A stretch of DNA of 64,000 nucleotides. Source: Woeseiaceae bacterium. GTDB lineage: Bacteria > Pseudomonadota > Gammaproteobacteria > Steroidobacterales > Woeseiaceae. Shown here in pieces: positions 3,287 to 30,700 of the stretch. Location: the NCBI GenBank assembly GCA_965224725.1, contig CBDCZZ010000001.1, forward strand, positions 37,613-101,612. The letters are read 5' to 3'. Within the stretch, counting starts at the first letter, position 1. Each line of letters starts with the position of its first letter. The notes beneath the pieces were generated by a model. The model saw only the letters and a list, made by a program, of their open reading frames with translations, did no database searches and was not told the origin of the DNA. The translations under genes were made by a program, and so were the position numbers.

Positions 3287-3327
3287 CTTGTTCTCCTTAT
3301 TGGGACGTACAGACCAATTGTAGCAAG

Positions 3328-5037: not shown

Positions 5038-6782
5038 CCGCTGCCCATGCGCCAGATTTCAGTCTGATCAAGCGATCGCTCACGATGCATCATAATCCAC
5101 TGCGCGTGCTCGTCCAGCGCCGACCGCCCAAGCACCGTCAGTATCTGGCGTCGTTGCTTGTCGGTCCTGGCAGCGTCAAGTCGTTTGCGCGCGTTAGCAA
5201 AGATACGCAGCATGAATTCGTACTGCTTGATCAGCTCGCTTTCGGCTATTGCGTGTGCGTAACCGTGCCTGACAGCGAACAGCAGCAGTGTCAGGCCCAT
5301 CAGGGCGAGCATTGGTGGCAGCCATTCGGACGGCAGGCGCGAGCCGCCGACCAAAAGAACGATTACAGTAGCCGCGCTCGCAAACAGGCTTACCCGCCCC
5401 AGCGTCTCGGTAATGCGCTGGCGACGTGTGCGTTCACGTACCTTCTGCGCGTAATAACCGAGCTGTCCCGAGTGCGCGGAACCGACCCACTCATTAATAG
5501 AGACCTGAAGTCCGGCAGGGTCTTCCTGCGGCATCGCGTCAGTCACTGTCCCCGAGACGCGCATCGTGTTACGGATCCAGCCGACCTCGGGGTCCTGCAA
5601 TTGCAGGAAGTTGTCGTGCGAGAAGTTCTCGAGATCGTCGGGCGAGACCCCCGCGAGCGCCCAGTAGAACTGCACACGCAGGCCTTCGGCGAGCGTGCGG
5701 TAATCAAGATACTTGCGAAACCAGCCACGTCGAACCGCAAGATTCTGCAGCACCGCGGCGGCAGCAAAACACGCAAGGAACAGGTACAGCAGCGGTTGCT
5801 CGGTGGACAGGTCTGAGTAAAGAATAAAGAGTGCGCCCATGACGAACGCGAACGTATGTGTCGTCCGTAATGTTCGCAGGCTTTTCTTCTGGTAGTGAAT
5901 CGCGAGAAAGTCGGCGCAGCGAAACGAGGCGTCGATGTGTGCGAGACCGTTGATGGCTGTCGGTTCGACGGCTTCGGTTACCAGCGACGGTGACGCATTC
6001 CCGATGTCTTCCCGGAAGCGCTGCGAATCATGACTGAACTCGTTGGCGCGCTTTAATACCTGGTGATGCGAGTCAGGCAGGTCCCTGGTTCGAGGTTGGT
6101 CAGCATCCTTGGTAAACCAGCACCACTCGAGTGGCTCCAGCCCGGCAAGCGGCGCGCCATCTTCGCGGTCGCGCGAGCATACGATGTGGCAGACCAGGTC
6201 GCTTTCGTCGTCGATCAGCATCTGCTGGCTGACGCCCGACTTCCCGGCGTACCCCGGCATGATGTCGTCGTGGTGAAAGTTGACGACCTGGCTGGTGCCG
6301 CCAAGATGGTCCGACTCCTTGCCGTCCCATACCGCGAGCAGCACGTGGCAGTGCGAGGCGAGAAAGATGCCGAGGTGTGCGTAATGCTGCTCCACCGGGG
6401 CGTCATCCGGGAGACCTGAAAGGACGATCACCTCGCTGGCGGCGGAGTACAGTCTGTCGAACCGGTCTGTCGCTTCCTGGTTTTCAAATTCGCCGAGATA
6501 CTCGCTGATCGGCAATGGCAGCGGAACGATCAGCGGCAACTGCATCTCGAGCGCAACTTCGGCGACGAGCTGGTCGGCGCCCTCGGCGAGCGGCGACATG
6601 ACGGTCAGTTCAAGCGCCGGGTAGGCGGTCCGCAGAAACTCGAGTCTCTCGCGCACCAGGTCGCGTATTCCATCGATCTCTGACGCAAGCAGATCGCGAT
6701 GACCTGTCACCGCAACGACAAGTGGTTGTCGGTGCGGTGCAGCATCGTTGCTGTCGACGGACTGGTCTTCGCTCTGGCTCAA
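5034..6782 (-). CDS. SLOG-like Rossmannoid domain fused to two tandem 2-TM SLATT/DUF4231-like modules
   Basis: N-terminal pattern VAVTGHRDL / SPLAEGADQLVAEVAL / LIVPLP / LLAVWDGK..GGTSQVV resembles the YpsA/LOG/DprA (SLOG) superfamily. There are then two units of [..YQKK.. TM TM ..RKYLDYRTLAEGLRVQFYW] and [..YYAQKVRER.. TM TM ..ESELIKQYEFMLRIF]. TTG start assumed. The CDS itself is solid; the domain calls are by eye. Confidence 0.7.
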   Translation of the reverse strand: MSQSEDQSVDSNDAAPHRQPLVVAVTGHRDLLASEIDGIRDLVRERLEFLRTAYPALELTVMSPLAEGADQLVAEVALEMQLPLIVPLPLPISEYLGEFENQEATDRFDRLYSAASEVIVLSGLPDDAPVEQHYAHLGIFLASHCHVLLAVWDGKESDHLGGTSQVVNFHHDDIMPGYAGKSGVSQQMLIDDESDLVCHIVCSRDREDGAPLAGLEPLEWCWFTKDADQPRTRDLPDSHHQVLKRANEFSHDSQRFREDIGNASPSLVTEAVEPTAINGLAHIDASFRCADFLAIHYQKKSLRTLRTTHTFAFVMGALFILYSDLSTEQPLLYLFLACFAAAAVLQNLAVRRGWFRKYLDYRTLAEGLRVQFYWALAGVSPDDLENFSHDNFLQLQDPEVGWIRNTMRVSGTVTDAMPQEDPAGLQVSINEWVGSAHSGQLGYYAQKVRERTRRQRITETLGRVSLFASAATVIVLLVGGSRLPSEWLPPMLALMGLTLLLFAVRHGYAHAIAESELIKQYEFMLRIFANARKRLDAARTDKQRRQILTVLGRSALDEHAQWIMMHRERSLDQTEIWRMGSG

Positions 6783-14474: not shown

Positions 14475-14524
14475 CCCGAGTCTACGCTATTGTGATCGCG
14501 GTTCGATATTCCGGGAATAAGTCG

Positions 14525-16003
14525 ATGCGTTGTCTGCTTGCAGCCCTTTGCCTGTTGTTCTCTGTTCCATTGCAGGCGCAGACGATCTCCGAGTGGATAC
14601 AACGCGAGTGTCCGGATTGCACGGCACGCATGCAGGAGCAGACCGGCAGCTACATCCTCGAAAAAGGCGAAGAAGCGTTGCTTGGCCGAGCCTGGCTGAC
14701 GCAGCACGCGACCGAATCGATCGATGTGCAGTACTTCATCTGGAGCACCGACAATATCGGCATTCTCGCTGGTGAAGGTTTGCTGCGGGCCGCGGAGCGT
14801 GGTGTCCAGATTCGTGTGCTCGTGGACGACTTCATGATCGACGCCGAGGATCGCACGATGCTGTTGTTGTCGGCGCACCCCAATGTGCAGATTCGTGTCT
14901 ATAACCCGAATTTAACGGTTGGCGTAAGCACCTGGGAGAAGGTCAAGAACCTGTTCGGCGACTTCCGCGCCATCAACCAGCGCATGCACGACAAGACCGC
15001 GATCTTCGACAATGTTGCGGGCATCACGGGCGGCCGCAACATGGCCGACGAATACTTCGACTTCGATCACGAATACAACTTTCGAGATCGCGACATTCTG
15101 CTGGTCGGATCGGCAGTTAACGACATGACCGAGAACTTCGAGGAGTTCTGGACCAGAGAGTACTCCGTACCGGTCGAGTACCTGCTCGAAGAAGAGCTCA
15201 TGAAAATCTCGCAGGCCGATATCGATGAGCGAGCAACCGAGTTACATGCGTACGCCGCAGACCCGCGCAACTTCGCGAAGTCGGTTCGCCAGGCAATCGA
15301 GTCGATGAGCGATCAGGTTGGCACACTGTTCGAGCACATGATCTGGGACGAGGTCACGTTCATTAGTGACGTTCCCGGCAAGAATGCGGGAGACGCTGGT
15401 CTTGGCGGTGGTGGTGAGTCGACTCGCAAGCTAATCGCGGCATTGGCAAGAGCGAAGAAGTCTGTACTGGTCCAGTCGCCGTATCTTGTCATGCCGGAAG
15501 GCGGCATGGACCTGTTCCGAGTGCTTGTTAACAGCGGTGTGCGCGTTCGTATCTCCACGAACTCGATGGCATCGACTGACAACATCCAGGCGTTCAGTGG
15601 CTACTCGAGTCAACGCGAAGACCTGCTCGCGACCGGCGTCGAGCTCTACGAATACAAACCGTATCCCGCGATTCGCGAGGAGCTGGTCGAGCGTTATCCG
15701 AGTATCGCGGAGAACAACCCGATCTTTGCACTGCATGCCAAGAGCCTCGTTATCGACGACCGCATCATCTACATCGGTACGTTCAACCTCGATCCGCGCT
15801 CGGCAAACCTGAATACCGAAGTCGGTGTTCTGATCGAGAACGAAGAGCTGGCGCGACAACTGACCGAAAGCATCGAGCGCGACATAGCCCCCGAAAACAG
15901 CTGGCGAACAACCGAGGACTACAACCCGGATGAAGAAGTCGGTCGCATGAAGCGCGCACGGGTGTGGTTTAACAAGTTGTTGCCGATCGAGCCGGTTCTC
16001 TAG
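14525..16003 (+). CDS. Phospholipase D family protein (two HKD motifs), secreted
   Basis: Signal peptide MRCLLAALCLLFSVPLQAQ. HKD motifs RMHDKTAIFD and LHAKSLVIDD. Start moved to ATG 14525. Confidence 0.85.
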   Translation: MRCLLAALCLLFSVPLQAQTISEWIQRECPDCTARMQEQTGSYILEKGEEALLGRAWLTQHATESIDVQYFIWSTDNIGILAGEGLLRAAERGVQIRVLVDDFMIDAEDRTMLLLSAHPNVQIRVYNPNLTVGVSTWEKVKNLFGDFRAINQRMHDKTAIFDNVAGITGGRNMADEYFDFDHEYNFRDRDILLVGSAVNDMTENFEEFWTREYSVPVEYLLEEELMKISQADIDERATELHAYAADPRNFAKSVRQAIESMSDQVGTLFEHMIWDEVTFISDVPGKNAGDAGLGGGGESTRKLIAALARAKKSVLVQSPYLVMPEGGMDLFRVLVNSGVRVRISTNSMASTDNIQAFSGYSSQREDLLATGVELYEYKPYPAIREELVERYPSIAENNPIFALHAKSLVIDDRIIYIGTFNLDPRSANLNTEVGVLIENEELARQLTESIERDIAPENSWRTTEDYNPDEEVGRMKRARVWFNKLLPIEPVL

Positions 16004-16048
16004 CCAATTCTCCTGCAATTTTCCCAAGCAATAACAACCAGTTATGTG

Positions 16049-16073
16049 TATAATACTGTACATTAAAACAGTG
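16049..16073 (+). promoter_or_regulatory. Candidate -10 (TATAAT) overlapped by a LexA/SOS box, TACTGTACATTAAAACAGTG
   Basis: TATAAT at 16049-16054. CTG-N10-CAG dyad with TA-rich centre at 16054-16073, 20 bp upstream of the DUF222-HNH start. Matches the gammaproteobacterial SOS-box consensus TACTG(TA)5CAGTA. Confidence 0.6.
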
Positions 16074-16093
16074 TATATGAGAGGGGAAAAATC

Positions 16094-17338
16094 ATGTCAT
16101 CAGGAGACGATCTCGGCTCGGAAATCACCGAGCTGTGCGCCTACATTTCAGTAGCCACCTACCAGCTGCTCTGCAAGATTCGCGAGTTTGATACTGGGCG
16201 CTACTGGGAAGCGCAGGGCTTTCGTTCGTGTGCCCACTGGATGAATTTTCATTGCGGTTTGGGGATGAATTCTGCGAGGGAGCGATTGCGAGTCGCGTAC
16301 GCGTTGGCGACATTGCCGAAGATCAGCGAGAAGTTTTCGAAAGGGCAACTTAGTTATTCGATCGTGCGGGCCATGACCCGGGTAGCCGATGCCGACAACG
16401 AAGAGTTTCTGGTGATGGTTGCTGAGCATGGAACAGCGAATCACATGGAGCGCCTGGTGCGCCAGTATCGTCGAGCCTGCAAACTACAGAATGAAGACTT
16501 CGCCTACGAGCAGTATCAAACAAGAGAAATGAGCTACCACTACGATGATGATGGCTCCGTGGTCATGAAGGTGAAGATGCCGGCCGAGCGGGGCGAGCTG
16601 GTGATCAAGGCGCTTGAGAAGATGATGGACGAGGACCTTCAGGAAGAGGCCGAGGTCGTCGAAGGCGAGGAAAAGCTGACGGCGAAAACACGTCGCGCTG
16701 ACGCGCTGTTGCATATCGCCGAGGATTACCTGAACGGTGGCGACTCGTCAGCCAGCACAGCGGATCGCTACCAGGTGGTGATCCACAAAACGGAGCACTC
16801 ACAGGAAGTTCAGCATGGCCCACACGTTTCAGCGGAAACGTGCCGCAGAATGTCCTGCGACTGTTCGAAGGTGGAAGTCACGGAAGACGAACACGGTAAA
16901 CCATTAAGTATCGGCAGGAAGTCACGAACCATCCCGCCTGCTATCAAACGCGCACTGGTTGTCCGCGATGGCGGTTGTCGCTTCCCGGGCTGCACCAACT
17001 GTCGTTATGTCGTTGGCCACCACATCCAACACTGGTCGAAAGACGGGGAGACGAGCTTGGATAACCTCGTGCTGCTGTGCGACTTCCACCATCACCTGGT
17101 TCACGAGGGTGGTTTCGATTGCAGGAAGTCCGACGATGGCGAAATTTACTTCGTCGACAAGCGAGATGAGCCGTTGGATGAAAGCTCTAACCCACGACCG
17201 ATCTCAATCGAGAACTCGCTGGCCTGGATGCGCGGCCGATATTCGAAGTTCGACGTTTCAGCGGAAACGTCGGTCAGTGGTTGGAAAGCTGGAGAGAGAA
17301 TGGATACTGCCTATGCGGTTTCGCTGATGTTCAACTGA
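16094..17338 (+). CDS. DUF222 + HNH endonuclease (REP13E12-like family)
   Basis: N-terminal DUF222-like helical region. C-terminal HNH motif CRFPGCTNCRYVVGHHIQHWSKDGETSLDNLVLLCDFHHHLVHEGG. Confidence 0.85.
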   Translation: MSSGDDLGSEITELCAYISVATYQLLCKIREFDTGRYWEAQGFRSCAHWMNFHCGLGMNSARERLRVAYALATLPKISEKFSKGQLSYSIVRAMTRVADADNEEFLVMVAEHGTANHMERLVRQYRRACKLQNEDFAYEQYQTREMSYHYDDDGSVVMKVKMPAERGELVIKALEKMMDEDLQEEAEVVEGEEKLTAKTRRADALLHIAEDYLNGGDSSASTADRYQVVIHKTEHSQEVQHGPHVSAETCRRMSCDCSKVEVTEDEHGKPLSIGRKSRTIPPAIKRALVVRDGGCRFPGCTNCRYVVGHHIQHWSKDGETSLDNLVLLCDFHHHLVHEGGFDCRKSDDGEIYFVDKRDEPLDESSNPRPISIENSLAWMRGRYSKFDVSAETSVSGWKAGERMDTAYAVSLMFN

Positions 17339-19275: not shown

Positions 19276-21495
19276 TTATTCCTGCAAGGTCAGTACACGC
19301 AGATTCGGGTCGGCCTGGATCTCTTCTTCGGTAAACGGAAAGTCGATCCACTCGCCGCGCGAATAAAGTTCCGTCTGGTCACTGTAGTGCGGCGACTCAG
19401 GCTCCGGCGACTGCGAGTAGGTCAGCAGTCCGCGTGCATCAAGGTTGCCGTCTTCGTCCCAGCCGATGACCTGGATGTAACTGTTGCCATGGTGGATCGG
19501 CGTGTAACCCTTCTCTTCAGTGAACCCCGTGACGATGTAGCTGAATACGCCGTGGCGCCCGACAGCTCCGGGGATGCCGATACGCTCACCATTACGTTCG
19601 GCGAACTGCACGTCGCCCCAACGGGCATCGAGTGCGAGCCCGGCGTCGGTGAGTTTCTTCTGCGCCGTGGCAAGCGCTGCGCGCAGTGCGCTGCGAACCT
19701 CATCGTTGTCGAGCGCCAGCCCATTCGGCGTATTGACCGCGTCATCCGCATCGAAGTCGACGGTATGCAGGTTTGGAATACGGCGTGCCCGCTCCCAGAA
19801 TTCGGTCCAGATATGTGTGCCACGGCTGTCGGTATTTGCTGTCTTGTCCCAGTTTGCCAGAACGTCGCAGCTCGCCTTGATGTCATCGCCACCGTCAACG
19901 CAGATGGTCAGTACCTCGTCGAGGAATAACTCGCCGCTGAAATGCCGATGGCTGAAGAGCATGTCCTGCACGTTCTCGGAGGAGAGCTTTCCGCCGGAAC
20001 CGAGAATCTCATCGACAAACGTCAGGCCCGCACGAGTACGCAGACTGCGTGCCGTGCGTTCGGTGCCGATCACAGGTGAGTAGCCCTCAAGCGGCCGGTC
20101 CGGGTTCGACAACCAGTAGCTGTCGTTCGAGTTGGTGAAGTACTCGGTCGAAGTTGCACGCGGCATATCATCGGCCGGCATGTTGCCGGGCACAGTGCTG
20201 CGTTCATCCAGCTTCCATTCGCAGTCGGGGTCTGATCCCTTGAGTACGATGAGGTAGGACGGCAGGTTTTCGATCGCCTGCTGGCAGCGGCCGAGCATCT
20301 CTGCATCGACGTTTGGCGTTGAAGAGATGTCTGCGTAGAAGGCATTGCCGTCGCGGTCGGCGGCTATCGTGTTAACGAAGAAAACGCCCTGCTGGCTGAT
20401 GGCCGCTTCGATGTCGGCTACCGATTCTGCTCCCTGCATGGCGGCGTAGGTTGCGAGAGCCATGTCATTGTCCGCAAGTGCGTCGCGAACTGCATACGCC
20501 CGCTCATTCGTCCATGGCAGCACTGCGGACGTTGCCAATGGGCCGTGATGAGACATGTATATCGTGTGATCGCCGGAGCCTGGAACGTTGACCGTCTTGG
20601 CTTCAATGTCGCGAAATTCATCGCCGTATCGATACTGCATCGGATTATCAGGGTTCAGCTCGAGCTCATGCACCGTGAAGCGCAATGCAGTGGAAACGGT
20701 GTGAGTCCACGCTATGTCCTTGTTGAAACCAATCGCGATGAAGTGGCCGGCGAGCAGGCGCGCACCCATGACGTCGAGGACGCCGGGGATCGTCGTGTGG
20801 ATAACATGGAAGCGAGCCGGTCCGTGCCAGGGGTAGTGCGGGTTGCCGAGCAACAAGCCGCGACCGGTTTCGGTCACGCTGCTGCCCGCGCTGATTGCGT
20901 TGCTGCCGAGGCCGGGCAGTGGGTCCACATCTAGCGTGACAGTTGCTACCGGCTCGCCCGGAGGTGCCGCAGCGCGGATTGCGTCCGTGAAGTTGCCAAG
21001 GCCGTAGCGCACGCCGAATGCAATGAACATTCTCTCGACGTCTGTCGCTTCGATCGGTCGTACCCACGGCTCATCGTTACAGGATGCGGGCAGCTTGCCG
21101 GCGTGATCGCGGAGGTAACGGTTGTAGCCCGCGGCGAAGCCCTCGCCGTATTCGACCATCTGCGGTGGCATCTTGGCTCGAATTCGGGTGAGCCGCTCTT
21201 CGGTGACAACGCTGCGGTAGAAGATATCGCTCGTGATGTTTTCTTCCGTTGCACCTGCGTCGGCCGAGAGCGTTCCCATCGCTGTAGCAAGCTCCCTGGC
21301 GAAAACGCAAATGCCGTCAGTCGATGCGGCGTACGCGAAGCCATAGCCTAGGCTGCCGAAATCTTCTGCAAGGACATGTGGAATGCCGTAGCTGGTCCAG
21401 CGAATGTCGACCGAGTACTTGTGTTCGGGAGCCGGCTTTGAACAGGCAACGAGAAGACTTGCAGCGACAATCGACGCAAAGATGCGAACGGACAT
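19276..21495 (-). CDS. Penicillin acylase / N-acyl-homoserine-lactone acylase family (Ntn hydrolase S45), lipoprotein
   Basis: Lipobox LLVACS. Autoprocessing site [10 protein letters not shown] followed by GNPHYPW. The size fits PvdQ/QuiP-type acylases. Confidence 0.85.
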
Positions 21496-21561
21496 GGCTT
21501 ACCTCGAGTTCAGACCGGGAGCGCCAAGTCTACACTCCAAGACTTGGTCTAATCGAGGCGA

Positions 21562-22398
21562 TTACTGTCGTGCCTCCCAGGCATCGCTGTAGCGACGTAT
21601 GCGCCAGGTACTGAGCTTATCGCCGTTTGAGAACTCGTCGCGACGGGACGTGACCTCCAGCATGGCTTGCCCGATCGACTGCGCGCGTACCGCTGCTCCA
21701 ACCGGGGAGAAGAAACCATACAGCATCTCCTGGCCGAGATGAGATTCCTCGTCGGTCGGGCCGATGTAGTCCGGCCGGTATGCGATGACCTCGAGATTCG
21801 TTCCCTCGGCCAGGCCAAACAGCTTGTTCTCGGCTTCGACCTTCACACGCGCCCACATGGCACTCGAGTCTTCCGATATGTCGCTCGAGCTGACGTAGTG
21901 AAACGCGATTTCGGGGCGACGTGCGATGCGAAGCCATTGCTCTACGAATTGCATCGGAAAATCGATGTGGATAAGCCGGTAATCATCCTCCTCCATACCG
22001 ACAGAGCTGATGCCAATAGCCCAGTAAACGGCGTCGACATTCGAGAGTCGATCGATGATTTTCGAGTAGTCGAGATAGTCCATGTGCTCAGTCACGACGA
22101 GCTTGCCGGTCTTCAGTCCGTCTTCCATGCGCGGGGTAATACGCCGCGTGATGATATGAATCGTTTCAACAGACGGGTCGGACATGGCTGCCTTGAGAAT
22201 GCCATCGCCCGCGGTGCCACTTGCGCCGAATATAGCAATGGTCGGAGTCATTGCTCTCACTCCGTCGTACTCGGGTGCGGTGTTGTCAAAGGTTGCTACG
22301 CGAATCGCGATGACAACGTAGAAGACGAAAAACAGCACGACAGGCGTCAGGAGGATGGTTCTTAAGCGCGGCATCTTCATGGGGCCGCATGTTAGCAT
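21562..22398 (-). CDS. NAD(P)H-binding (NmrA/SDR-like) protein with N-terminal TM helix
   Basis: IAIFGASGTAGDGILKAA Rossmann motif after a hydrophobic N-terminus. The exact start is uncertain (ATG at 22398, 22380 or 22374). Confidence 0.7.
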   Translation of the reverse strand: MLTCGPMKMPRLRTILLTPVVLFFVFYVVIAIRVATFDNTAPEYDGVRAMTPTIAIFGASGTAGDGILKAAMSDPSVETIHIITRRITPRMEDGLKTGKLVVTEHMDYLDYSKIIDRLSNVDAVYWAIGISSVGMEEDDYRLIHIDFPMQFVEQWLRIARRPEIAFHYVSSSDISEDSSAMWARVKVEAENKLFGLAEGTNLEVIAYRPDYIGPTDEESHLGQEMLYGFFSPVGAAVRAQSIGQAMLEVTSRRDEFSNGDKLSTWRIRRYSDAWEARQ

Positions 22399-22405
22399 CG
22401 CTCAC

Positions 22406-22810
22406 GTGAGCAAGCCGCCCGATCAAACCATCGCAGAGAGAATTCGCCACGCGCGTGAGCAGGCACAGATGCCGCCCGCGGAGCTGCGACAGATTCTCAG
22501 ACAGGACTACGGGATCGATTTGTCGAAGACTGGTCTGCACCGTCTTGAGAATGTCGATTCCAAGAATCCCAACCTGAAACTCATCCAGGCGATCGCAAAG
22601 ATCACGCGCGTTTCGCCGAGCTGGATCCTGTTTGGAGAAGGTACGTCATTGCCTGGCGATGAGGTAGGAAGCGCCATTCGTTCGCGCGTTATCGATACGA
22701 TCGAACTGATGATCGGCGCTCTCGACATGTCGTCGAGGCAGGAGTCGACGATCAACAATTGGCTCAAGAGTGTTCGCGAAAATCCACCGAAAAAAATACG
22801 CAAACCCTGA
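22406..22810 (+). CDS. XRE-family helix-turn-helix transcriptional regulator
   Basis: IAERIRHAREQAQMPPAELRQIL...LKLIQAIAKITRVSPSWILFGEG is a classic HTH_3 pattern. GTG start at 22406 is a guess (the ORF is open from 22355). Confidence 0.7.
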   Translation: MSKPPDQTIAERIRHAREQAQMPPAELRQILRQDYGIDLSKTGLHRLENVDSKNPNLKLIQAIAKITRVSPSWILFGEGTSLPGDEVGSAIRSRVIDTIELMIGALDMSSRQESTINNWLKSVRENPPKKIRKP

Positions 22811-22858: not shown

Positions 22859-22886
22859 TTGACATGCTTCCTGACGTGCGTATACT
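22859..22886 (+). promoter_or_regulatory. Near-consensus sigma70 promoter (TTGACA - 16 nt - TATACT)
   Basis: TTGACA at 22859-22864 and TATACT at 22881-22886. Confidence 0.5.
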
Positions 22887-22892
22887 CCCGCG

Positions 22893-23139
22893 CACTATGA
22901 AAACTTCCATCAAACAACTTGGCTGGTTATTCGCCGCGCGGTATTGCGCAGACGGCGATGCGCGCCTGTGCGTCCGAGATACGCATATGGGCTCAAGCCT
23001 TATTGATGCGATTCCCACAAATAGCGGGGAACCGATGACGTAGCTTTCCAAGAATGGTTCCTGGAAGGCTCGAACAGATACCTTCCGGGAAAGCTCCAAG
23101 GAGAAACCCCGGCTGGTTTAAACCAACCGGGGTTTTTTT
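22893..23139 (+). ncRNA. Orphan transcription unit of about 245 nt (candidate sRNA or near-leaderless 47-aa peptide)
   Basis: Bounded by the promoter above and a strong intrinsic terminator. The only ORF (ATG 22898, stop 23043, MKTSIKQLGWLFAARYC...) has no SD. Confidence 0.35.
23105..23139 (+). terminator. Rho-independent terminator
   Basis: CCCCGGCTGGTT...AACCAACCGGGG stem (about 10 bp, one mismatch) followed by T7. Confidence 0.75.
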
Positions 23140-23159
23140 ATGCCCCGCGTTAGCTCTTT

Positions 23160-23182
23160 AACAATGCGGATTGTGTAGACGT
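23160..23182. repeat. Left copy of a perfect 23-bp inverted repeat, AACAATGCGGATTGTGTAGACGT
   Basis: The exact reverse complement occurs at 26375-26397. The element contains an internal dyad, ACAAT-GCGG-ATTGT. Confidence 0.9.
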
Positions 23183-24156
23183 TGGGGCAGAGTCTTTCAG
23201 GGGAAAGTCTGCGGCTTCCAGACATGGCTGTGCGCGTTCGCGCCTGCCCCCAACGTAGTAAGAATTCTGGTCTACCGGTTTCGGCCGGGGTCCTTAATAG
23301 CGGCCTGGCGCTGCTAACCGTCGGTAACGGCGGGAAAGGGGCACTACCCATGGTGTCTCGCCGGTGTAATGCCGGTCCGACCAGGCAAGTTCGGCCTCCA
23401 ATGTCCTCGGCTGCGGCCGGGGATAGCGGTAGAGCGATGCGCGGAAGTAGCGAGCCTATGTACCTTCGGGAATACAGGTTCGTGAAAGAACACGTGGTGG
23501 TGCAACCCGCGATACCAACTTCGTGAATCGTGAGAGGTAACGAATAGTGCAGGCAAGTACGAGCTTTGCAAGCGAGTGCGCCTGTGCAGATTTTTGGGGT
23601 TCCGGCGTGCAGCCAGCGTCCTGAAAGTCGGTCAAGTAACCGGCAGGTGAACGACATTCGGCGTGTTGTATTTCGTGGCCCAAAAGGCGACGAAGCGACT
23701 GAGACACGCACGTCGAAATGGGCATTTGTGTTTTTAGCTCAGCATGGCAGAGCAATCGATCGTTAGTCGATGGGTCGCCGGTTCAAATCCGGCATCACAC
23801 ACCGAAACGTAAACGCAAAGACGTGTCTCGGTACAGCCTGAAAATGGCTTAAAGCCGAAGCCTTTTGGCAATTCGGCAGATGAGAGGGCCGCAAGCCCGC
23901 TCATCTTCGGCAACAAGCCGCACGGTTGGGGAGCACCCATTTGGAGCCCGCAAAGCTCACGGTAAGCGCGTTGCTGAATACGGCTGTACGACGAGTGATT
24001 CGCCACACTCCAAAAAAGGCAGTCATGAGCATCTACTGTCGTGCCGGCTTCGGCCGGGCGGCAGTGGACAAGGACGCAACGGCGCCCGGCAGGGCGGTCC
24101 GGTACTCGTACAAAAGGATGCTCGTAAAGCGCTTAGTCTCAGCGCTTTTTTCTTTT
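23183..24156 (+). ncRNA. Candidate large structured RNA (ORF-free, about 0.97 kb) with an embedded tRNA-like domain
   Basis: No credible CDS. Hand-checked helices: 23179-23190 with 23244-23256 (12 bp, 1 bulge); 23698-23708 with 23822-23832 (11 bp, enclosing the tRNA-like element); hairpin 23878-23906; UUCG-capped CCGGC/GCCGG hairpin 24044-24057; terminator-like hairpin plus U-run 24127-24156. Boundaries are approximate. Confidence 0.45.
23728..23801 (+). tRNA. tRNA-like element, anticodon GUU (Asn) by position; degenerate acceptor stem and C33
   Basis: Hand fold: GTGTTTT/TA/GCTC-AGCATGGCA-GAGC/A/ATCGA-TCGTTAG-TCGAT/GGGTC/GCCGG-TTCAAAT-CCGGC/ATCACAC/A. Only 5 of 7 acceptor pairs. C instead of U at position 33. 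No encoded CCA. Confidence 0.5.
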
Positions 24157-24160
24157 CAAT

Positions 24161-24236
24161 GTCGAGCTTAGCTTAATGGTAAAGCCCCTGGTTGTGAGCC
24201 AGGCAGATACCGGTTCGAGTCCGGTCGTTCGACCCA
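24161..24236 (+). tRNA. tRNA-His (GUG) with G-1:C73 and encoded CCA
   Basis: Hand fold: G(-1) TCGAGCT/TA/GCTT-AATGGTA-AAGC/C/CCTGG-TTGTGAG-CCAGG/CAGAT/ACCGG-TTCGAGT-CCGGT/CGTTCGA/C/CCA. The extra 5' G opposite C73 is the His identity hallmark. Confidence 0.85.
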
Positions 24237-24328
24237 CATACCTTAGGCCCGTGTTCGGGCGCGGCGACCAGACCGCAATTCAATGCTGGGAGGCGAAAGC
24301 CCGGGGAGCATCATGCTCTCCGAATTCT

Positions 24329-24404
24329 ACGGCCGTAGCTCAGTGGACAGAGCGTGACTGTGCGAAGGTCAAAGTCGGAGGTTCGAGTCCTCCCGGCCGT
24401 ACCA
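24329..24404 (+). tRNA. tRNA-Arg, anticodon GCG, encoded CCA
   Basis: Hand fold: ACGGCCG/TA/GCTC-AGTGGACA-GAGC/G/TGACT-GTGCGAA-GGTCA/AAGTC/GGAGG-TTCGAGT-CCTCC/CGGCCGT/A/CCA. Perfect 7-bp acceptor stem. G at position 32 and a GCG anticodon are unusual for bacteria. Confidence 0.75.
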
Positions 24405-24411
24405 ATCTTCT

Positions 24412-24485
24412 TCGGTGCTCGTCCAAGGGCAAGACGCGAGACTTTGAATCTCGAAATCGTGGTTCGAGTCCACGGCGCCGATCCA
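24412..24485 (+). tRNA. tRNA-Gln (UUG), encoded CCA
   Basis: Hand fold: TCGGTGC/TC/GTCC..AGAC/G/CGAGA-CTTTGAA-TCTCG/AAAT/CGTGG-TTCGAGT-CCACG/GCGCCGA/T/CCA. U1-A72 and UC at positions 8-9, as in E. coli tRNA-Gln. Only 7 nt after the Arg gene. Confidence 0.8.
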
Positions 24486-24491
24486 TACAAA

Positions 24492-24570
24492 GGCCGTCTG
24501 AAGGGAATCTGGCATACCTACCTGTCTCAGAAACAGGTGCTTCCCGGTTCGACCCCGGGGGCGGCTACCA
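24492..24570 (+). tRNA. tRNA-like gene, anticodon CAG (Leu) but with a short 5-nt variable loop
   Basis: Hand fold: GGCCGTC/TG/..GGAATCTGGCATA../CCTGT-CTCAGAA-ACAGG/TGCTT/CCCGG-TTCGACC-CCGGG/GGCGGCT/A/CCA. Leu-like D-loop and A73. It lacks the class II long variable arm and the D-stem is irregular. Confidence 0.55.
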
Positions 24571-24711
24571 GTTTTGACATCGCGACTGTCATACCGAGGT
24601 TTATCGTATCGGAAAGACTTTGCGGTTCGGGTTCTCTGAATTCCCGTCCGGCACGCCGAAGCTAACCATTGTAACGCGTGTACCAAGTGCTCCGAATGAT
24701 GCACCGCCACC

Positions 24712-24784
24712 TGAAAATTAGCTCAGTGGGTAGAGCATACGAAATGTACTCGTAAAGTCGCTGGTTCGACTCCAGCATTTTCAA
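24712..24784 (+). tRNA. tRNA-like gene, anticodon UGU (Thr) by position, A33, no encoded CCA
   Basis: Hand fold: TGAAAAT/TA/GCTC-AGTGGGTA-GAGC/A/TACGA-AATGTAC-TCGTA/AAGTC/GCTGG-TTCGACT-CCAGC/ATTTTCA/A. All stems are perfect, but the loop AAUGUAC lacks the near-universal U33. Confidence 0.55.
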
Positions 24785-25151
24785 CTGGCCTCAGAAGCCA
24801 CTCAGGAAAAGGCCCATGGCCTGCGGTTCGACTCCGCTCCTGGCAGGGATACTGCCTCAAACCGCAGCCACCTCCAGCGAAAGTTTGCCTGAGACATCCC
24901 CGTCGAAGGTGAACGAGTAGCAGCAACCCGGTTGCCGGTCGACGAGTTGCTCGTCGTGTCCGAATCTCAATCCAGTTTCATTCCGAGCATTTGCGATTCG
25001 TCGCATTCGCTCCGACTGATACCGCATCGACATTCCGGCAGGTCGGACACCGTCTTCCCGCTCCCCGGTTGTGGAGGTGCGCTGCACCAAACTTTTTCCC
25101 GCGTTGCATCTGCGGCGTTTTTTTCTCACCGCGAACTAAAAGGAGGTGATC

Positions 25152-26300
25152 ATGTTCTACATGAAGGCAATTGTGCGTAAGCACGAACGTGCACTCCTGT
25201 TCCGTGACGGTGACTTCGTCAAGTTCATCGAGCCTGGCGTACACCGTTTCGCAACGTTGCTGCACAAGGTAGCGCTGGTCCGTTTCGATATCACGGATCT
25301 CGCGTTCACTCACCCGCTGGAGGACTTTCTCATTGAGAAGTACCCGGAGGACGTGAAGGGTTACTTCGATATCGTCGAAACCGGTACGGATGAGGTTGCC
25401 GTGGTTTACCACGATGACCACATCACGGCCGTGATGGCGCCGACCGAGCGCAAGCTGTTCACCAAGGGTGTCTACGACATCCGCGTTGAACGCTTCGAAG
25501 TCGTCGATAACCTCGACGTCGACAAGCGTCTCGCCAAGCGCCTGGCAACGGTCGCCGATGCACAGGTCAAGGCAATTGCCGCGAAGCTGGTATTCGCAAC
25601 CACGGTACCGGAGGGCCACACGGGTCTCCTGTACGTGGATGGTGAGCTCAAGCGTTCGCTGAACGCCGGCTACCACGCGTTTCTGGCGGTAGACCGTGAC
25701 ATCGACGTTGCCAAATACGACACCCGCGTACAGACGCTCGAGGTATCGGGTCAGGAAATCCTCACCAAGGACAAGGTTGCAGTTCGCATTAACCTGACCG
25801 CGACCTACGAGCTGACTGACGTCGAGAAGGCTGTCCGCGCTGCGCGTGATCCGCTCGATCACCTGTACAAGGAAGTGCAGTTTGCGCTGCGTGGTGCCGT
25901 TGGTACCCGCACTCTCGATGCGCTGCTGGAAGACAAGACGGTTATCGACACGTCGGTAGCTGATCACCTGACGGCACACTTCGAGACGATCGGTATCACG
26001 ATCAAGTCGGTTGGTGTTAAGGACATCATCCTGCCTGGCGATATGAAGGACCTGCTGGGCAAGGTGGTTGAGGCCGAAAAGGCGGCCCAGGCCAACGTCA
26101 TTCGTCGTCGCGAAGAGACCAACGCAACGCGTTCGCTGCTCAACACCGCAAAGGTGATGGAGACGAACTCGGTCGCGCTGCGTCTCAAGGAACTCGAGAC
26201 GCTCGAAAAGATCACCGAGAAGATCGGCAACATTTCGGTCTACGGTGGTCTCGAGTCGGTCCTGACCGATCTCGTTCACCTGAACAAGGGTGAACGTTAA
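25152..26300 (+). CDS. SPFH/band-7 (slipin-like) domain protein without TM helix
   Basis: Strong SD (AAAGGAGGTGATC-ATG). Central SPFH pattern (EVSGQEILTKDKVAVRINLTATYELTD...LRGAVGTRTLDALLEDK) and a coiled-coil C-terminus (VVEAEKAAQANVIRRREE). Confidence 0.85.
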   Translation: MFYMKAIVRKHERALLFRDGDFVKFIEPGVHRFATLLHKVALVRFDITDLAFTHPLEDFLIEKYPEDVKGYFDIVETGTDEVAVVYHDDHITAVMAPTERKLFTKGVYDIRVERFEVVDNLDVDKRLAKRLATVADAQVKAIAAKLVFATTVPEGHTGLLYVDGELKRSLNAGYHAFLAVDRDIDVAKYDTRVQTLEVSGQEILTKDKVAVRINLTATYELTDVEKAVRAARDPLDHLYKEVQFALRGAVGTRTLDALLEDKTVIDTSVADHLTAHFETIGITIKSVGVKDIILPGDMKDLLGKVVEAEKAAQANVIRRREETNATRSLLNTAKVMETNSVALRLKELETLEKITEKIGNISVYGGLESVLTDLVHLNKGER

Positions 26301-26302
26301 GT

Positions 26303-26360
26303 GTAGGAGCGGCTTCAGCCGCGATGCATTTCGCAACTGAAGTTGCTCCTACATCTTTTT
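26303..26360 (+). terminator. Long REP-like hairpin (about 19 bp) + T-run, terminator of the SPFH gene
   Basis: GTAGGAGCGGCTTCAGCCGC...GCAACTGAAGTTGCTCCTAC pairs 26303-26323 with 26332-26352, followed by ATCTTTTT. Confidence 0.7.
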
Positions 26361-26374
26361 CGTCCCTAAGGGAG

Positions 26375-26397
26375 ACGTCTACACAATCCGCATTGTT
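26375..26397. repeat. Right copy (reverse complement) of the 23-bp inverted repeat
   Basis: ACGTCTACACAATCCGCATTGTT is the exact reverse complement of 23160-23182. It lies 15 nt upstream of the HNH start codon. Confidence 0.9.
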
Positions 26398-26412
26398 TCG
26401 GGAGTGGGAACA

Positions 26413-26988
26413 ATGATTGAGAGAATTTTGAAACTGGATATTGGTGGACGCCCGATCGCGTGGATTACCCGCGAGGAGGGCGCCCTGATGTACTGCCGTG
26501 ACCAGGTTGCCTGGGAGGCCGGCATGGAGCACATCGTGCTGCGTGGTGGTATCTCGCGCGTGACCGGCGGTCGCTCGGTGCTCTTCGTATCGACGATCGT
26601 TGCGGCAAACGATGTACACCGCGGGCTGGACCTGCTGAATGACGTGCCGGCGCTGACCAACAGACGCCTGTTCCGTCGCGACAACCACATGTGCCTGTAC
26701 TGCGGCGACTACCTGTACGACTGCGAGCTGACTCGCGACCACGTCGTTCCGGTATCGCGCGGCGGCCCGGACACCTGGGAAAACGTCGTGACCGCATGCC
26801 GAATCTGCAACCACCGCAAGGCAGATCGCCTGCTCGACGAATGCGGCATGAAGCTCTTGGCTGTGCCTTACGTGCCTAACCGCGCGGAGGGCCTGATCCT
26901 CGAGAACCGCCACATCCTGGGAGACCAGATGGAGTTCCTGAGGGGACACGCGAAGCAACGCAGCGATTTGCTGTACACCTATAAGTAA
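26413..26988 (+). CDS. HNH endonuclease with an uncharacterised N-terminal domain
   Basis: CLYCGDYLYDCELTRDHVVPVSRGGPDTWENVVTACRICNHRK is a canonical HNH/zinc motif. Start placed at ATG 26413. Confidence 0.8.
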   Translation: MIERILKLDIGGRPIAWITREEGALMYCRDQVAWEAGMEHIVLRGGISRVTGGRSVLFVSTIVAANDVHRGLDLLNDVPALTNRRLFRRDNHMCLYCGDYLYDCELTRDHVVPVSRGGPDTWENVVTACRICNHRKADRLLDECGMKLLAVPYVPNRAEGLILENRHILGDQMEFLRGHAKQRSDLLYTYK

Positions 26989-27002
26989 AGGAGGATGAAA
27001 CG

Positions 27003-28412
27003 ATGGCGTTTCTCCATGAAGTAGAAAAAGTGTCGGACGCACACTACGTGCTGCCCAGGATCGGTGACATGCGCACCGAGGTGCACGCGTACCTGTCGGA
27101 TACGCTGTTCGCCCAGACGGACGAAGCACTCTGGCGCCAGGCTGCGCAGGCGGCCGCGTACCCGGGTGTTATCGGTCTGTACCTGATGCCGGACACCCAC
27201 CTGGGTTATGGCATTCCGGTTGGCGGCGTTGTCGTCACCGAGGATGTCATCATCCAGGCCGGTTCGGGCTACGACATCTCGTGTGGTGTCGTGTACCTGA
27301 AGGTGCCTGACCTGACGGCGGCTGACGTCGCCGACTGGGACAAGCGTCGTGCGTGGATCAATGACGTCGAGCAGCGTATTGCTACCGGCGTTGGTTCGCA
27401 TCGCCCGAAGCATATGCCGCGCCTGAACGAGTCGAAGATCGAAGACATCTTTCACTACGGTGCCAAGGCCATCGGCGTTCACGCCGATGTCTGCGAGCGT
27501 CAGTACATTGATGTCGACGAGCAGGTACTCGATTCGGAGCGAATCAAGCGTGCGCGCGACAAGGCGTGCCCGCAGATCGGTTCGGTTGGCGGCGGTAACC
27601 ACTTTGTCGAGATGCAGGTCGACAAGCATGACGGCTCGGTGTGGGTAATGATTCACTGCGGCTCGCGCGGCTACGGCTGGCAGACCGCGAACCACTACTT
27701 CTACGCCGGCGCCGAGCTGCGCGGACTCGCGAAAAACCGTCGCGAGGACTCGTGGCTGCGTGTCGACGAGCCACTCGGCAAGGAGTACTGGGCGCACCAC
27801 AACTCGGCAGCAAACTACGCGGTCGCAAACCGCCACATCATTGTGCGCGGTGTGCAGACGGCGCTTCAGAATGTCTACAACGCATCGGCTGACGTCTTCT
27901 TCGAGATCTCGCACAACCTGGTGCAGGAAGAGACGCTCGTGCTGCCGGACGGTACGACCAAGAAGGGCTTTGTTCACCGCAAGGGGGCGACGCGTGCGTT
28001 CCCGGCGGGACACCCCGACCTGGTTGGTACCAAGTGGGAGAAGACCGGTCATCCGTGCCTGGTTCCGGGCTCGATGCTGGATGGTGCTGCCATCCTGTAT
28101 CCGCTCAAGGGAGCCTTCGACACGGGTTGCTCGGTCAACCATGGCTCGGGCCGCGTGATGGCGCGCGGCAAGGCGAAGCGTGAGCTCGCCGAGATGCACG
28201 ACGACATCGATAACGAAATGCGCTACATCAAGCGCACGCTCGGCGGCGTCGAAATTCAGGGCATCGTCGGCAACACGCGTCGCACGCCGCTCGACGAGTG
28301 CGGTCATGTGTACAAGGATCTCGATGAGGTCCTGCGCGTACTGGAGACGGAAGGTATCGCCCGCGTGGCAAACCGACTGTACCCGGTCGCAAACATCAAG
28401 GGCGCCGATTAG
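27003..28412 (+). CDS. rtcB: RNA 3'-phosphate/2',3'-cyclic phosphate - 5'-OH ligase RtcB
   Basis: AGGAGG SD. RtcB signature motifs: GYGIPVGGV, SVGGGNHFVEMQ, IHCGSRGYGWQ, ISHNLV, HRKGATRA, VPGSM, SVNHGSGRVM. Confidence 0.92.
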   Translation: MAFLHEVEKVSDAHYVLPRIGDMRTEVHAYLSDTLFAQTDEALWRQAAQAAAYPGVIGLYLMPDTHLGYGIPVGGVVVTEDVIIQAGSGYDISCGVVYLKVPDLTAADVADWDKRRAWINDVEQRIATGVGSHRPKHMPRLNESKIEDIFHYGAKAIGVHADVCERQYIDVDEQVLDSERIKRARDKACPQIGSVGGGNHFVEMQVDKHDGSVWVMIHCGSRGYGWQTANHYFYAGAELRGLAKNRREDSWLRVDEPLGKEYWAHHNSAANYAVANRHIIVRGVQTALQNVYNASADVFFEISHNLVQEETLVLPDGTTKKGFVHRKGATRAFPAGHPDLVGTKWEKTGHPCLVPGSMLDGAAILYPLKGAFDTGCSVNHGSGRVMARGKAKRELAEMHDDIDNEMRYIKRTLGGVEIQGIVGNTRRTPLDECGHVYKDLDEVLRVLETEGIARVANRLYPVANIKGAD

Positions 28413-28421
28413 GCGCCCTTG
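28397..28421. terminator. Perfect 10-bp GC-rich hairpin (CAAGGGCGCC/GGCGCCCTTG) between convergent genes
   Basis: The stem spans the rtcB stop codon and is followed by a T-rich tract. The convergent gene ends at 28439. Confidence 0.6.
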
Positions 28422-29316: not shown

Positions 29317-30090
29317 ATGTATACGGATATCCAGTTGCGCGAGATCTTTCACTTCTGCTTCCTGAACAGGTTGCTGAAGACGACTGATATTGAGCTATTC
29401 GTACTCAAGGGTGGCGTCAACCTTCGCTTCTTCTTCCAGAGCCCGCGTTACTCCGAGGACATGGATCTCGATGTTCTTGGCGGCAGTGTCGCAACGCTCA
29501 AAAAGAACGGCTACAAAATACTCAACGACGCGTCCTTCCAGCGCAGCCTCAAGGTCTTCGATATCGACTCGGTCGAAATCAACGATCCACACAAGGCCAA
29601 ACACACCAAAACGACACAGCGCTTTCGCTGTTCCCTGGTCCGTTCGTCCGGGCAGCAATTGCCAACCAAGGTCGAATTCTCACGTCGTGCCGACGAGGTT
29701 CGAGAGCTGACGATTACCGAGCAAGTAGACCCCGGTATCGCGCTCCCTTATCGAAAGCTGGCGTACCCTTGCCGGCATTACAACGGAACCGCGGCCGTTG
29801 CTCAGAAGATTGAGGCGCTGGCCGGCCGCAGCGTGGCGCAGGCGCGCGACGTATTTGATTTGGGCATTCTGCAGGCGGGTGGCCACCTCGCGTCGGCTGC
29901 AGATCAGGACAACTTCCAGGATCTGCCCTTTGCCGCCGCAATCGATGCTCTACTGTCCCTGCACTGGGAAGATTATGAAGGCCAGGTGCTCGAATATCTC
30001 GCGCCAGAGATCCTTGGAGAATTCGGGAGTCGGGACGCTTGGGTAAATCTGCAGAACGAGATCTACGAAGTACTGCTGGCTCATGCTTGA
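29317..30090 (+). CDS. Nucleotidyltransferase AbiEii/AbiGii-family toxin (DUF1814)
   Basis: FVLKGGVNLRFFFQSPRYSEDMDLDV matches the LKGGTAL..SPRFSEDLDF signature of the family. Confidence 0.85.
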   Translation: MYTDIQLREIFHFCFLNRLLKTTDIELFVLKGGVNLRFFFQSPRYSEDMDLDVLGGSVATLKKNGYKILNDASFQRSLKVFDIDSVEINDPHKAKHTKTTQRFRCSLVRSSGQQLPTKVEFSRRADEVRELTITEQVDPGIALPYRKLAYPCRHYNGTAAVAQKIEALAGRSVAQARDVFDLGILQAGGHLASAADQDNFQDLPFAAAIDALLSLHWEDYEGQVLEYLAPEILGEFGSRDAWVNLQNEIYEVLLAHA

Positions 30091-30700
30091 TTTGCTGCAG
30101 AAACCGGACTTTGTCGTATTCACGACTCGCGATGCCGCTGTTGCCGACGGCGTATCAGTTTCAGCTGCATCGAGAAGACTGACGCGAATTGCCGAAGGTG
30201 GGGCGATCAAACGAGTTACCAAGGGCGTTTGGGCAAATACACAGCACCCACACTTTCATCCCCTGTCCTGCGTACCATACTTGCTGGGGAAAGAGCAGGG
30301 ATACGTATCATTCCTCTCTGCATTGCACCTGCATGCAGCGTTGTCGCAGATTCCTGCCGTTATGATGGTCGCCACAACTGGTCATGGCCGAAAGCTCGAT
30401 TCTCCAGTTGGCAGGTTTGAGTTTTTCCGGGTCAAGCCGGAACTTATGCGTGATGGCGTTGCGTGGTCAGATACCCGGCAGCCATACCTGATGGCGACTC
30501 CGGAAAAAGCCTTGTTGGACGTCTTGTACCTTTCGACAAGAAAAAAGCGTCGCTTCTCTCGATTACCGGAGCTCATCTTGAGCGATAGCGGATTTCGGGT
30601 AACGGAGTTCAGGCGCCTGCTTAAGTCCTTGCCATACTCCAAGCGGGTACGTTCAGCGATCAATTCCAGGTGGGAAGGCCTGGCGCCGCAGATTAGCTGA
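30083..30700 (+). CDS. AbiEi-like antitoxin / wHTH regulator
   Basis: N-terminal wHTH pattern FTTRDAAVADGVSVSAASRRLTRIAEGGAIKRVTKGVWAN. Overlaps the upstream toxin gene by 8 nt. Confidence 0.7.
   Translation: MLDLLQKPDFVVFTTRDAAVADGVSVSAASRRLTRIAEGGAIKRVTKGVWANTQHPHFHPLSCVPYLLGKEQGYVSFLSALHLHAALSQIPAVMMVATTGHGRKLDSPVGRFEFFRVKPELMRDGVAWSDTRQPYLMATPEKALLDVLYLSTRKKRRFSRLPELILSDSGFRVTEFRRLLKSLPYSKRVRSAINSRWEGLAPQIS

Follow-up and report, generated by a model that had tools for sequence, protein, structure and literature searches.

Six tRNA-type genes in an SPFH-HNH-RtcB operon of a Woeseiaceae bacterium: four spare tRNAs and two tRNA-shaped domains of larger RNAs

The GOLLD RNA, reportedly described by Weinberg in 2009, is among the largest bacterial non-coding RNAs and is not known to have a function. 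In mycobacteria it lies inside tRNA arrays, together with an HNH gene and an embedded pseudo-tRNA, the expression of which was not detectable in M. aubagnense (PMC6582537); by cryo-electron microscopy it has been seen as a 14-meric RNA nanocage with tRNAs in its linker (PMC12286853). The arrays themselves are associated with HNH genes, and XRE genes accompany about 87% of the mycobacterial G2 tRNA array units (PMC5966550). L-arrays with HNH are induced by translational stress and co-regulated with rtcB, and 23 of 26 array tRNAs were found aminoacylated in Anabaena (PMC8421152); an anti-defence role has also been proposed for tRNA arrays (PMC12803027). A further system, the b7a-tRNA next to Band-7 and RtcB, was predicted by Burroughs and Aravind in 2016 as described in a preprint (bioRxiv 10.1101/312249), which states that this prediction is experimentally not validated. 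Here we analyse a stretch of 64,000 nt from a Woeseiaceae bacterium (assembly GCA_965224725.1, contig CBDCZZ010000001.1) in which all of these elements occur together. This whole stretch is called the window below; it is bacterial chromosome with a G+C content of about 58%, and all coordinates are given in window positions.

The elements form one accessory unit of about 6 kb in the order XRE gene, leader, GOLLD, four array tRNAs, a structured RNA containing b7a-tRNA, and the genes for SPFH/Band-7, HNH and RtcB; the last three genes and every RNA gene lie on the same (+) strand. An earlier note on this DNA, made from the letters alone, had described six tRNA-type genes on the forward strand, and ARAGORN called exactly these six at the same positions (Table 1), with no other tRNA gene in the whole window; what the note observed is real and far exceeds chance. 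Five of them were matched by the Rfam tRNA model (RF00005) at 50 to 64 bits, the gathering score being 29; the Leu-like gene was unmatched by this model even at E<=10 and was called by ARAGORN alone. The unusual anticodon loops to which the note had drawn attention are real in the ARAGORN cloverleaves, that is, UCGUUAG in the Asn-like gene (C33 and G38), AAUGUAC in the Thr-like gene (A32 and A33) and GUGCGAA in the Arg-GCG gene (G32), and the loops of the His and Gln genes are canonical. The note was also right about the spacers of 7 and 6 nt between Arg, Gln and Leu, about the Leu-CAG gene being without the long variable arm, and about CCA, which the His, Arg, Gln and Leu genes encode and the Asn-like and Thr-like genes lack. 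The tRNA-His had been regarded as fully canonical; its G-1:C73 pair is indeed there, but the acceptor stem has one U7.C66 mismatch.

We conclude that the six genes are four spare tRNAs and two tRNA-shaped domains of larger non-coding RNAs. What the note had missed are GOLLD around the first gene, a structured RNA around the last one, and the SPFH-HNH-RtcB genes directly downstream.

For comparison, 444 relatives of the SPFH protein of the window were found among species-representative genomes, the best of which is encoded on the chromosome of a Woeseiaceae metagenome-assembled genome (87% identity) and shares the flanking synteny too. Related loci were labelled L001, L002 and so on, L001 being the closest, syntenic genome. 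The denominators used below are 79 for loci with enough upstream sequence, 80 for the RtcB count, and 83 for the counts of GOLLD and of the 3' element described in the next section.

tRNA-shaped domains of GOLLD and of the RNA around b7a-tRNA

In a permissive Rfam scan, the region of the first tRNA-type gene was matched by the GOLLD model (RF02032) over its full length (model positions 1-416 of 416) with 147.0 bits and E=1.6e-40. This is 3 bits below the Rfam gathering score of 150, and the shortfall coincides with a 75-nt insert in a linker; three copies in relatives, which are about 78% identical to the window copy or matched at E down to 1e-63, exceed the gathering score with 150.7, 154.9 and 155.8 bits. 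The Asn-like gene is placed by the Rfam GOLLD alignment as an insertion in an unpaired linker. Over 20 relatives keep the 5' domain, which precedes the part modelled by Rfam (E down to 1e-92); 16-17 keep the 3' domain (E down to 1e-63), which L001 has lost. Of the 16 complete GOLLDs in relatives, 14 have a tRNA-like linker insert that ARAGORN calls, and a fifteenth has one that is visible though missed by the program. The body of these inserts is conserved, and their loops read as Trp-CCA, as Arg-UCU, -CCU or -CCG, as Leu-UAG, or are 6 or 8 nt long. The Asn-like gene is the tRNA-shaped insert of the GOLLD linker and not a decoder of Asn, and its "Asn" label is accidental.

The Thr-like gene corresponds to b7a-tRNA. 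In 77 of the 79 loci the SPFH gene is preceded, within less than 1.3 kb and on the same strand, by a tRNA-type gene, and the one in the window ends 360 nt before the SPFH start. Its anticodon is not kept: 28 different anticodons occur among 72 copies, and near-identical bodies bear UGU, CUU, UCU or CAU. U33 is missing in 19 of these copies (26%); over the loop as a whole, C32 is found in 50 of the 72, U33 in 53, A37 in 50 and A38 in 58. We then used 68 pairs of copies with at least 90% identical bodies, pairs which are not phylogenetically independent, for the calculation of divergence per site. The values were 0.052 for the tRNA-like body, 0.40 for the anticodon, 0.26 for the other loop positions flanking it, and 0.32 for the four-fold degenerate sites of the adjacent SPFH gene, which means that the body is about six-fold constrained relative to neutral sites. 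In the pairs L011/L012 and L016/L017 the anticodon differs at two of the three positions despite a four-fold divergence of just 0.06-0.21 in SPFH.

Since the loop of b7a-tRNA evolves at about the neutral rate and its body is constrained, A33, like C33 of the GOLLD insert, is the product of an unconstrained loop; and since the loops drift freely in the relatives, the Asn and Thr labels and the odd loops are without decoding meaning. The suggestion that C33 and A33 mark loops escaping from nucleases is therefore not supported, because both sit in tRNA-like domains of larger RNAs. The Thr-like gene is a Band-7-associated tRNA-like module, not a Thr decoder. Positive selection on the anticodon was considered and rejected, as 0.40 is not robustly higher than the neutral 0.32 when the pairs are not independent. 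The b7a gene is tandemly duplicated in L007, L010, L014 (copies 0-1 nt apart), L058, L060, L069 and L080, with odd anticodons such as AAA, ACA and AUU.

On both sides, b7a-tRNA is flanked by conserved structures. Ten of the close relatives examined have a constant spacing of 136-142 nt from the last array tRNA to b7a-tRNA; the structured 5' element in this interval always precedes b7a-tRNA, is kept in 23 loci and shows compensatory changes in six pairs. The 3' element, located by a sequence profile between b7a-tRNA and SPFH in 60 of the 83 loci, has 60 predicted pairs, of which 40 show compensatory changes. In its alignment 92.1% of the cells were paired, compared with 77.3% in shuffles (0 of 500 shuffles reached 92.1%), and 144 cells were compensated, compared with 45 in shuffles; controls with slid registers gave 32-43% paired. 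Its architecture comprises a hairpin that resembles an anticodon arm and has a variable loop, an invariant hairpin that resembles a T arm (GCGG-UUCGAnU-CCGC, 24823-24837), a long irregular helix, and a 12-bp closing helix (24864-75 with 25073-85).

Because b7a-tRNA is flanked by these structures, the functional RNA, or 5' untranslated region (UTR), is probably about 520 nt in length and not a 75-nt tRNA. Thus b7a-tRNA is probably one module of a structured RNA or 5' UTR spanning 24571-25094, which is absent from Rfam: in the Rfam scan of the window no family matched the region of the 3' element. A YrlA-like match at 24663-24770 was noise (14 bits, E=5.6). Long-range pairing of the 5' with the 3' element around b7a-tRNA is unsupported, for only three pairs were found and all of them are invariant. 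The layout of this RNA, 5' domain, tRNA and 3' domain, echoes that of GOLLD.

The array tRNAs and their relatives

The number of same-strand tRNAs around SPFH ranges from 0 to 28 in the relatives and is at least four in 43 of the 79 loci. CCA is encoded in 505 of the 542 array tRNAs of the relatives, and U33 is present in 92.6% of the 542; the 40 without it are concentrated in His, Glu and Gly. Among the array tRNA-His genes, 19 of 31 have C33 (loop CCGUGAC), and C33 occurs in Glu-UUC and Gly-GCC genes too (L004-L051); the His gene of the window has U33.

The earlier note had read the identities of the genes as a set of targets of colicins and other anticodon nucleases. This is not borne out, for His, Arg, Gln and Leu are what remains of a near-complete tRNA set, with up to 28 genes in relatives. 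Nor is G32 a peculiarity of this Arg gene. Its GCG, which had been taken for a rare anticodon, is the norm for Arg in these arrays (18 GCG versus 5 ACG), and G32 occupies a position that may be U, G, C or A across the array family, in which the anticodon, mostly GCG, is conserved.

The Leu-like gene has a D stem of 3 bp, an anticodon stem of 6-7 bp and a variable loop of 4-5 nt. In the arrays of L001-L063, Leu isoacceptors (CAG, UAG, CAA, UAA and GAG) are likewise mostly 77-80 nt long and without the class II long arm. When the array Leu genes were aligned, 17 of 21 pairs showed compensatory changes, the D region hardly varied, and A73 and CCA were seen. These compensatory changes and conserved features indicate that the short-arm Leu tRNA is a selected molecule and not a wreck. 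A canonical 87-nt Leu-CAG gene lies outside an array in L060.

The Arg-Gln-Leu block of the window is homologous to a block that normally follows SPFH (L016, L020) and has been relocated. Where the window has His, Arg, Gln and Leu, L001 has Pro, Leu and Lys; because the content differs even from this closest genome, the array tRNAs are probably accessory and not housekeeping. As judged from comparison of sequences, a mobile, horizontally spreading and fluctuating tRNA array has left His, Arg-GCG, Gln and Leu-CAG behind as its remnants, and it is unlikely that they are the only genomic copies of their isoacceptors. A long array would comprise tens of tRNAs for most amino acids; the window, with four tRNAs and two tRNA-like genes in 1.06 kb, does not have one.

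The idea of replacement tRNAs put forward in the earlier note is supported in its general part, as these are accessory tRNAs in a context of RNA damage, 2.2 kb upstream of RtcB; it is plausible for His, Arg, Gln and Leu only.

Protein genes, regulatory elements and neighbourhood of the operon

The features of the operon are listed in Table 1. Among 80 SPFH-related loci, the HNH gene is present in 41, the XRE gene in 20 and an RtcB gene of either type in 35; the arrays of mycobacteria and cyanobacteria likewise have XRE and HNH genes with them. The reading frames of SPFH, HNH and RtcB in the window are not disrupted and are 80-94% identical to those of relatives.

Table 1. Coordinates of the RNA, protein and regulatory features of the accessory operon (window positions)
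Feature	Position	Strand	Remarks
XRE/HTH_3-type regulator	22355-22810	+	weak Pfam HTH_3 and NCBIfam DicA-like matches
Promoter-like site TTGACA-16-TATACT	22859-22886	+	near-consensus sigma-70, 11/12 matches
Small open reading frame, 48 aa	22897-23043	+	conserved C-terminal TNSGEPMT
Strong hairpin with U-run	stem 23113-23130	+	
Leader, invariably preceding the first gene of the array in relatives	23142-23260	+	nhmmer: >25 loci, E down to 1e-28
GOLLD RNA, ~890 nt	23261-24148	+	Rfam match; conserved 5' and 3' domains in relatives
GOLLD 5' domain	23261-23655	+	
GOLLD, Rfam-modelled part	23656-24145	+	
tRNA-like insert in GOLLD linker (ARAGORN Asn-gtt)	23728-23803	+	no encoded CCA; two acceptor-stem mismatches
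GOLLD terminal hairpin with U-run	24126-24148	+	
Array tRNA-His(GUG)	24161-24236 (ARAGORN 24162-24236)	+	G-1:C73; encoded CCA
Array tRNA-Arg(GCG)	24329-24404	+	G32; encoded CCA
Array tRNA-Gln(UUG)	24412-24485	+	canonical loop; U73; encoded CCA
Array tRNA-Leu(CAG), short variable arm	24492-24570	+	A73; encoded CCA
Structured 5' element	24571-24711	+	hairpin and multi-helix domain; 141 nt
Band-7-associated tRNA-like module, b7a-tRNA (ARAGORN Thr-tgt)	24712-24785	+	no encoded CCA
Structured 3' element	24786-25094	+	~310 nt; between b7a-tRNA and SPFH start
SPFH/Band-7 protein	25146-26300	+	Pfam Band_7, E=4.7e-31; likely start ATG 25152
HNH endonuclease, array-associated	26404-26988	+	Pfam HNH_5 and HNH; 41 related loci
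RtcB RNA ligase	27003-28412	+	Pfam RtcB, E=5.3e-88
Terminator-like hairpin at RtcB end	28397-28421	+	

By tblastn, the XRE gene of the 20 related loci is 67-85% identical to that of the window and invariably lies upstream of the array; its true start is probably some codons downstream of the one listed. Between this gene and the leader, the region 22859-23141, which includes the promoter-like site, the small open reading frame (ORF) and the hairpin, is conserved in about 20 loci and may act as a leader, an attenuator or a small regulator. The hydropathy of the SPFH protein revealed no transmembrane segment, so that the protein is expected to be soluble. A conserved terminator or attenuator before SPFH was considered as a general mechanism and rejected, as it is present in the window and not conserved in the relatives.

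A full-length homolog of the HNH protein (44% identity) is encoded directly after a 27-tRNA array on the Methylibium petroleiphilum plasmid RPME01 (L085, 3206-8552), an array with HD-domain and AlkB genes inside and no GOLLD at the gathering score. Plasmids of Nostoc PCC 7120 and of Mycolicibacterium, two groups in which tRNA arrays are known, carry further homologs. In related loci SPFH is followed by RtcB orthologs of 87-94% identity; when both types of RtcB are counted, the gene stands mostly, though not invariably, downstream of SPFH. Compared with the window, the loci L016-L029 show far better conservation of RtcB than of SPFH (87-91% versus 60-63% identity), and in other lineages SPFH is found with another, distant type of RtcB (about 27% identity). 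PADLOC has no model for the SPFH or RtcB proteins and gave only domain-level matches for HNH (PtuB, Cas9).

Relative to the syntenic L001, the window has two extra segments, 14492-17338 and 19276-22398, which include a PLD-like gene, a DUF222-HNH gene (16094-17338, where G+C dips to 0.52), and a penicillin amidase gene with an ORF of unknown function. Just downstream of the operon, at 29317-30700, lies a pair of genes for AbiEii, a nucleotidyltransferase toxin, and AbiEi; such a pair is next to the operon in none of the related loci and is thus probably an unrelated neighbour in a variable region. The long ORFs 23118-23711, 24978-26336 and 26212-27129, all on the minus strand, were discarded, their conservation in tblastn being the antisense shadow of the GOLLD RNA and of the SPFH, HNH and RtcB genes; annotators are liable to miscall them.

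When sequenced phages were searched with the GOLLD region, only generic matches at the level of tRNAs were obtained, and the SPFH protein, used as a query against viral contigs, matched three distant loci, one of them with a 36-tRNA array, so that a phage origin is not shown. This one is the predicted viral contig L081 (IMGVR_UViG_3300007072_000340, 917-5566), in which the 36 tRNA genes directly precede a distant homolog of SPFH with 36% identity; the final tRNA gene, some 435 nt ahead of SPFH, stands where b7a would be.

Possible function of the operon and comparison with described systems

RtcB joins RNA ends carrying a 2',3'-cyclic phosphate and a 5'-OH. We consider it likely that the locus is an accessory operon tied to tRNA damage and repair, with tRNA-shaped modules constrained in the body and neutral in the loop and with array tRNAs that are spare. 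A sequence of events can be proposed for such an operon. The trigger would be tRNA damage or a translation stall, caused by the anticodon nucleases of competitors, by phage-triggered or toxin-antitoxin RNases, or by antibiotics, upon which the XRE-controlled unit would be transcribed as a single long RNA. RNase P and 3' processing would free the spare tRNAs, so that the tRNA pool would be topped up or the damage soaked up, and RtcB would reseal tRNA halves bearing its substrate ends. The b7a RNA and an SPFH oligomer might serve as cofactor or scaffold for the ligation, which is what Burroughs and Aravind are described as having proposed, and GOLLD, a 14-meric cage tethering tRNA-like inserts, might be a facultative partner in the same response. 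That the b7a-containing RNA of about 520 nt and a recruited GOLLD are tRNA mimics in this response, as scaffold, bait or cage cargo, is a tentative suggestion which we hold to be possible yet rather doubtful.

Several observations weigh against the repair-operon interpretation. GOLLD is next to SPFH in only 17 of the 83 loci and is thus a facultative partner. In many related loci RtcB is not found within 6 kb downstream of SPFH, which makes the link to repair frequent and not obligatory. In the window, hairpins with a U-run terminate GOLLD and immediately precede SPFH, so co-transcription of the whole unit is not assured. The small size of the array, four tRNAs only, and the two acceptor-stem mismatches in the GOLLD insert could indicate decay.

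If the locus were decaying, four tRNAs and two crippled pseudo-tRNAs, all without function, would be what erosion has left of a once-complete array. The contrast with up to 28 tRNAs in relatives, the relocated Arg-Gln-Leu block, the mismatched insert, the 3' domain of GOLLD lost in L001 and the undetected pseudo-tRNA of M. aubagnense (PMC6582537) would all fit such a history. What makes it very improbable is that both tRNA-like bodies are about six-fold more conserved than neutral sites, that GOLLD matches the full Rfam model, that the flanking helices have been kept through 40 compensated pairs, and that the SPFH, HNH and RtcB frames are intact with 80-94% identity to relatives. We find it hardly credible, in turn, that this is an ordinary housekeeping operon supplying the sole copies of its isoacceptors. 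The six genes are the only tRNA genes in 64 kb, and four of them encode CCA like proteobacterial housekeeping genes; but their content is not kept even in the syntenic closest genome, Arg-GCG and the short-arm Leu are array-specific types (with the canonical Leu-CAG of L060 outside an array), and the HNH, XRE and GOLLD partners are hallmarks of mobile arrays.

More has to be weighed where the loops are concerned. According to the earlier note, all six genes could be nuclease-resistant replacement tRNAs or decoys matched to targets of the colicin E5/D type, with C33, A33 and G32 as escape mutations. RtcB and the AbiE toxin-antitoxin pair are adjacent, loops without U33 recur in related arrays (19 of 31 His genes have C33, which is also seen in Glu and Gly), and there are documented cases of phage tRNAs whose altered anticodon loops evade defences directed at tRNAs (PMC10264068, PMC11555353). 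We nevertheless regard this explanation as unlikely, since the C33 and A33 loops belong to modules that drift at the neutral rate through at least 28 "identities", encode no CCA and are embedded in larger RNAs. Moreover, related arrays span nearly all amino acids, which leaves His, Arg, Gln and Leu as a deletion remnant, the His and Gln loops of the window are canonical, and position 32 of Arg-GCG is simply variable. The b7a and GOLLD loops might instead be baits under diversifying selection, the cleavage of which by an incoming anticodon nuclease is sensed, or is absorbed and religated by RtcB; each lineage would then display the loop that its local enemies attack. In Salmonella, damaged tRNAs reportedly regulate an RNA-repair operon (Hughes and colleagues, 2020). 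The anticodon of b7a-tRNA does evolve slightly faster than four-fold sites, two of its three positions differ in the two pairs of loci named above, and the frame of the loop is tRNA-like in most of the 72 copies. The excess over the neutral rate is small and comes from pairs that are not independent, the flanks of the loop drift too, and loops of 6 and 8 nt in GOLLD inserts are what relaxed constraint predicts; selection for bait loops is accordingly improbable in our judgement.

As pairs, the associations are known already: GOLLD has been linked to arrays and HNH, arrays to HNH and rtcB, and b7a-tRNA to Band-7 and RtcB. In the literature that was searched we found no paper that joins GOLLD to RtcB, SPFH or RNA repair. 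The union of all elements in one operon, with GOLLD and an array inside a b7a-tRNA/SPFH/RtcB operon, was not found described and is apparently new. The neutral drift of both tRNA-like loops and the structured RNA of about 520 nt around b7a-tRNA also appear to be new, though some of all this may already be noted in Burroughs and Aravind 2016. With this locus, GOLLD and b7a-tRNA, the latter a ten-year-old prediction, acquire a concrete setting that can be tested, namely tRNA damage and repair, and a new, well-supported large structured RNA is added; if the tRNA-mimic reading is true, GOLLD would for the first time be placed in a functional context. What is conserved in the tRNA-shaped parts is the shape and not a decoding role, and caution in annotation is advisable because tRNA finders give such modules arbitrary amino-acid identities.

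Among described systems, the L-arrays (PMC8421152, PMC5966550, PMC12803027) resemble the locus in their same-strand, dense, CCA-encoding supernumerary tRNAs, in the presence of HNH and XRE, in the neighbourhood of RtcB, and in horizontal spread with variable content. They differ in that the window, with four true tRNAs only, is a reduced derivative, and in that the arrays of this clade wrap around SPFH and contain class-I-like Leu tRNAs and Arg-GCG. Defence-evading phage tRNAs (PMC10264068, PMC11555353) share the supernumerary state, the mobile origin and, at the level of families, odd loop positions (C33 in His, Glu and Gly; position 32 in Arg); the window, in contrast, is a chromosomal operon with a repair ligase and not a phage, and its two most deviant loops are not in decoding tRNAs. 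The YrlA/Y RNA-Rsr-RtcB operons likewise encode, beside RtcB and a scaffold protein, a non-coding RNA having a tRNA-like domain with a conserved body and no decoding function. In the window the partner is SPFH and not Ro60/Rsr, no significant match to the YrlA model was obtained, and a complete cloverleaf with a 7-nt "anticodon" loop is kept.

The locus agrees with the b7a/Band-7/RtcB system in the tRNA-resembling gene directly 5' of Band-7/SPFH, here and in 77 of the 79 loci, and in the adjacent RtcB gene (27003-28412 in the window), which is present in 35 of the 80 related loci. It differs in that the module is flanked by conserved structures of 141 and about 310 nt supported by covariation, in that the anticodon loop evolves neutrally, and in that the operon in the lineage of the window also has GOLLD, a tRNA array, HNH and XRE. 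With the published GOLLD RNAs, the window copy has in common the full-length match to the model, the less conserved 5' domain, the tRNA-like linker insert, and, as has been described for Mycobacterium (PMC6582537), the surrounding tRNA array with its HNH gene. It differs from them in being chromosomal in Gammaproteobacteria of the marine-sediment type (Woeseiaceae and relatives), not in a recognisable prophage, and in lying physically within an SPFH-RtcB repair operon.

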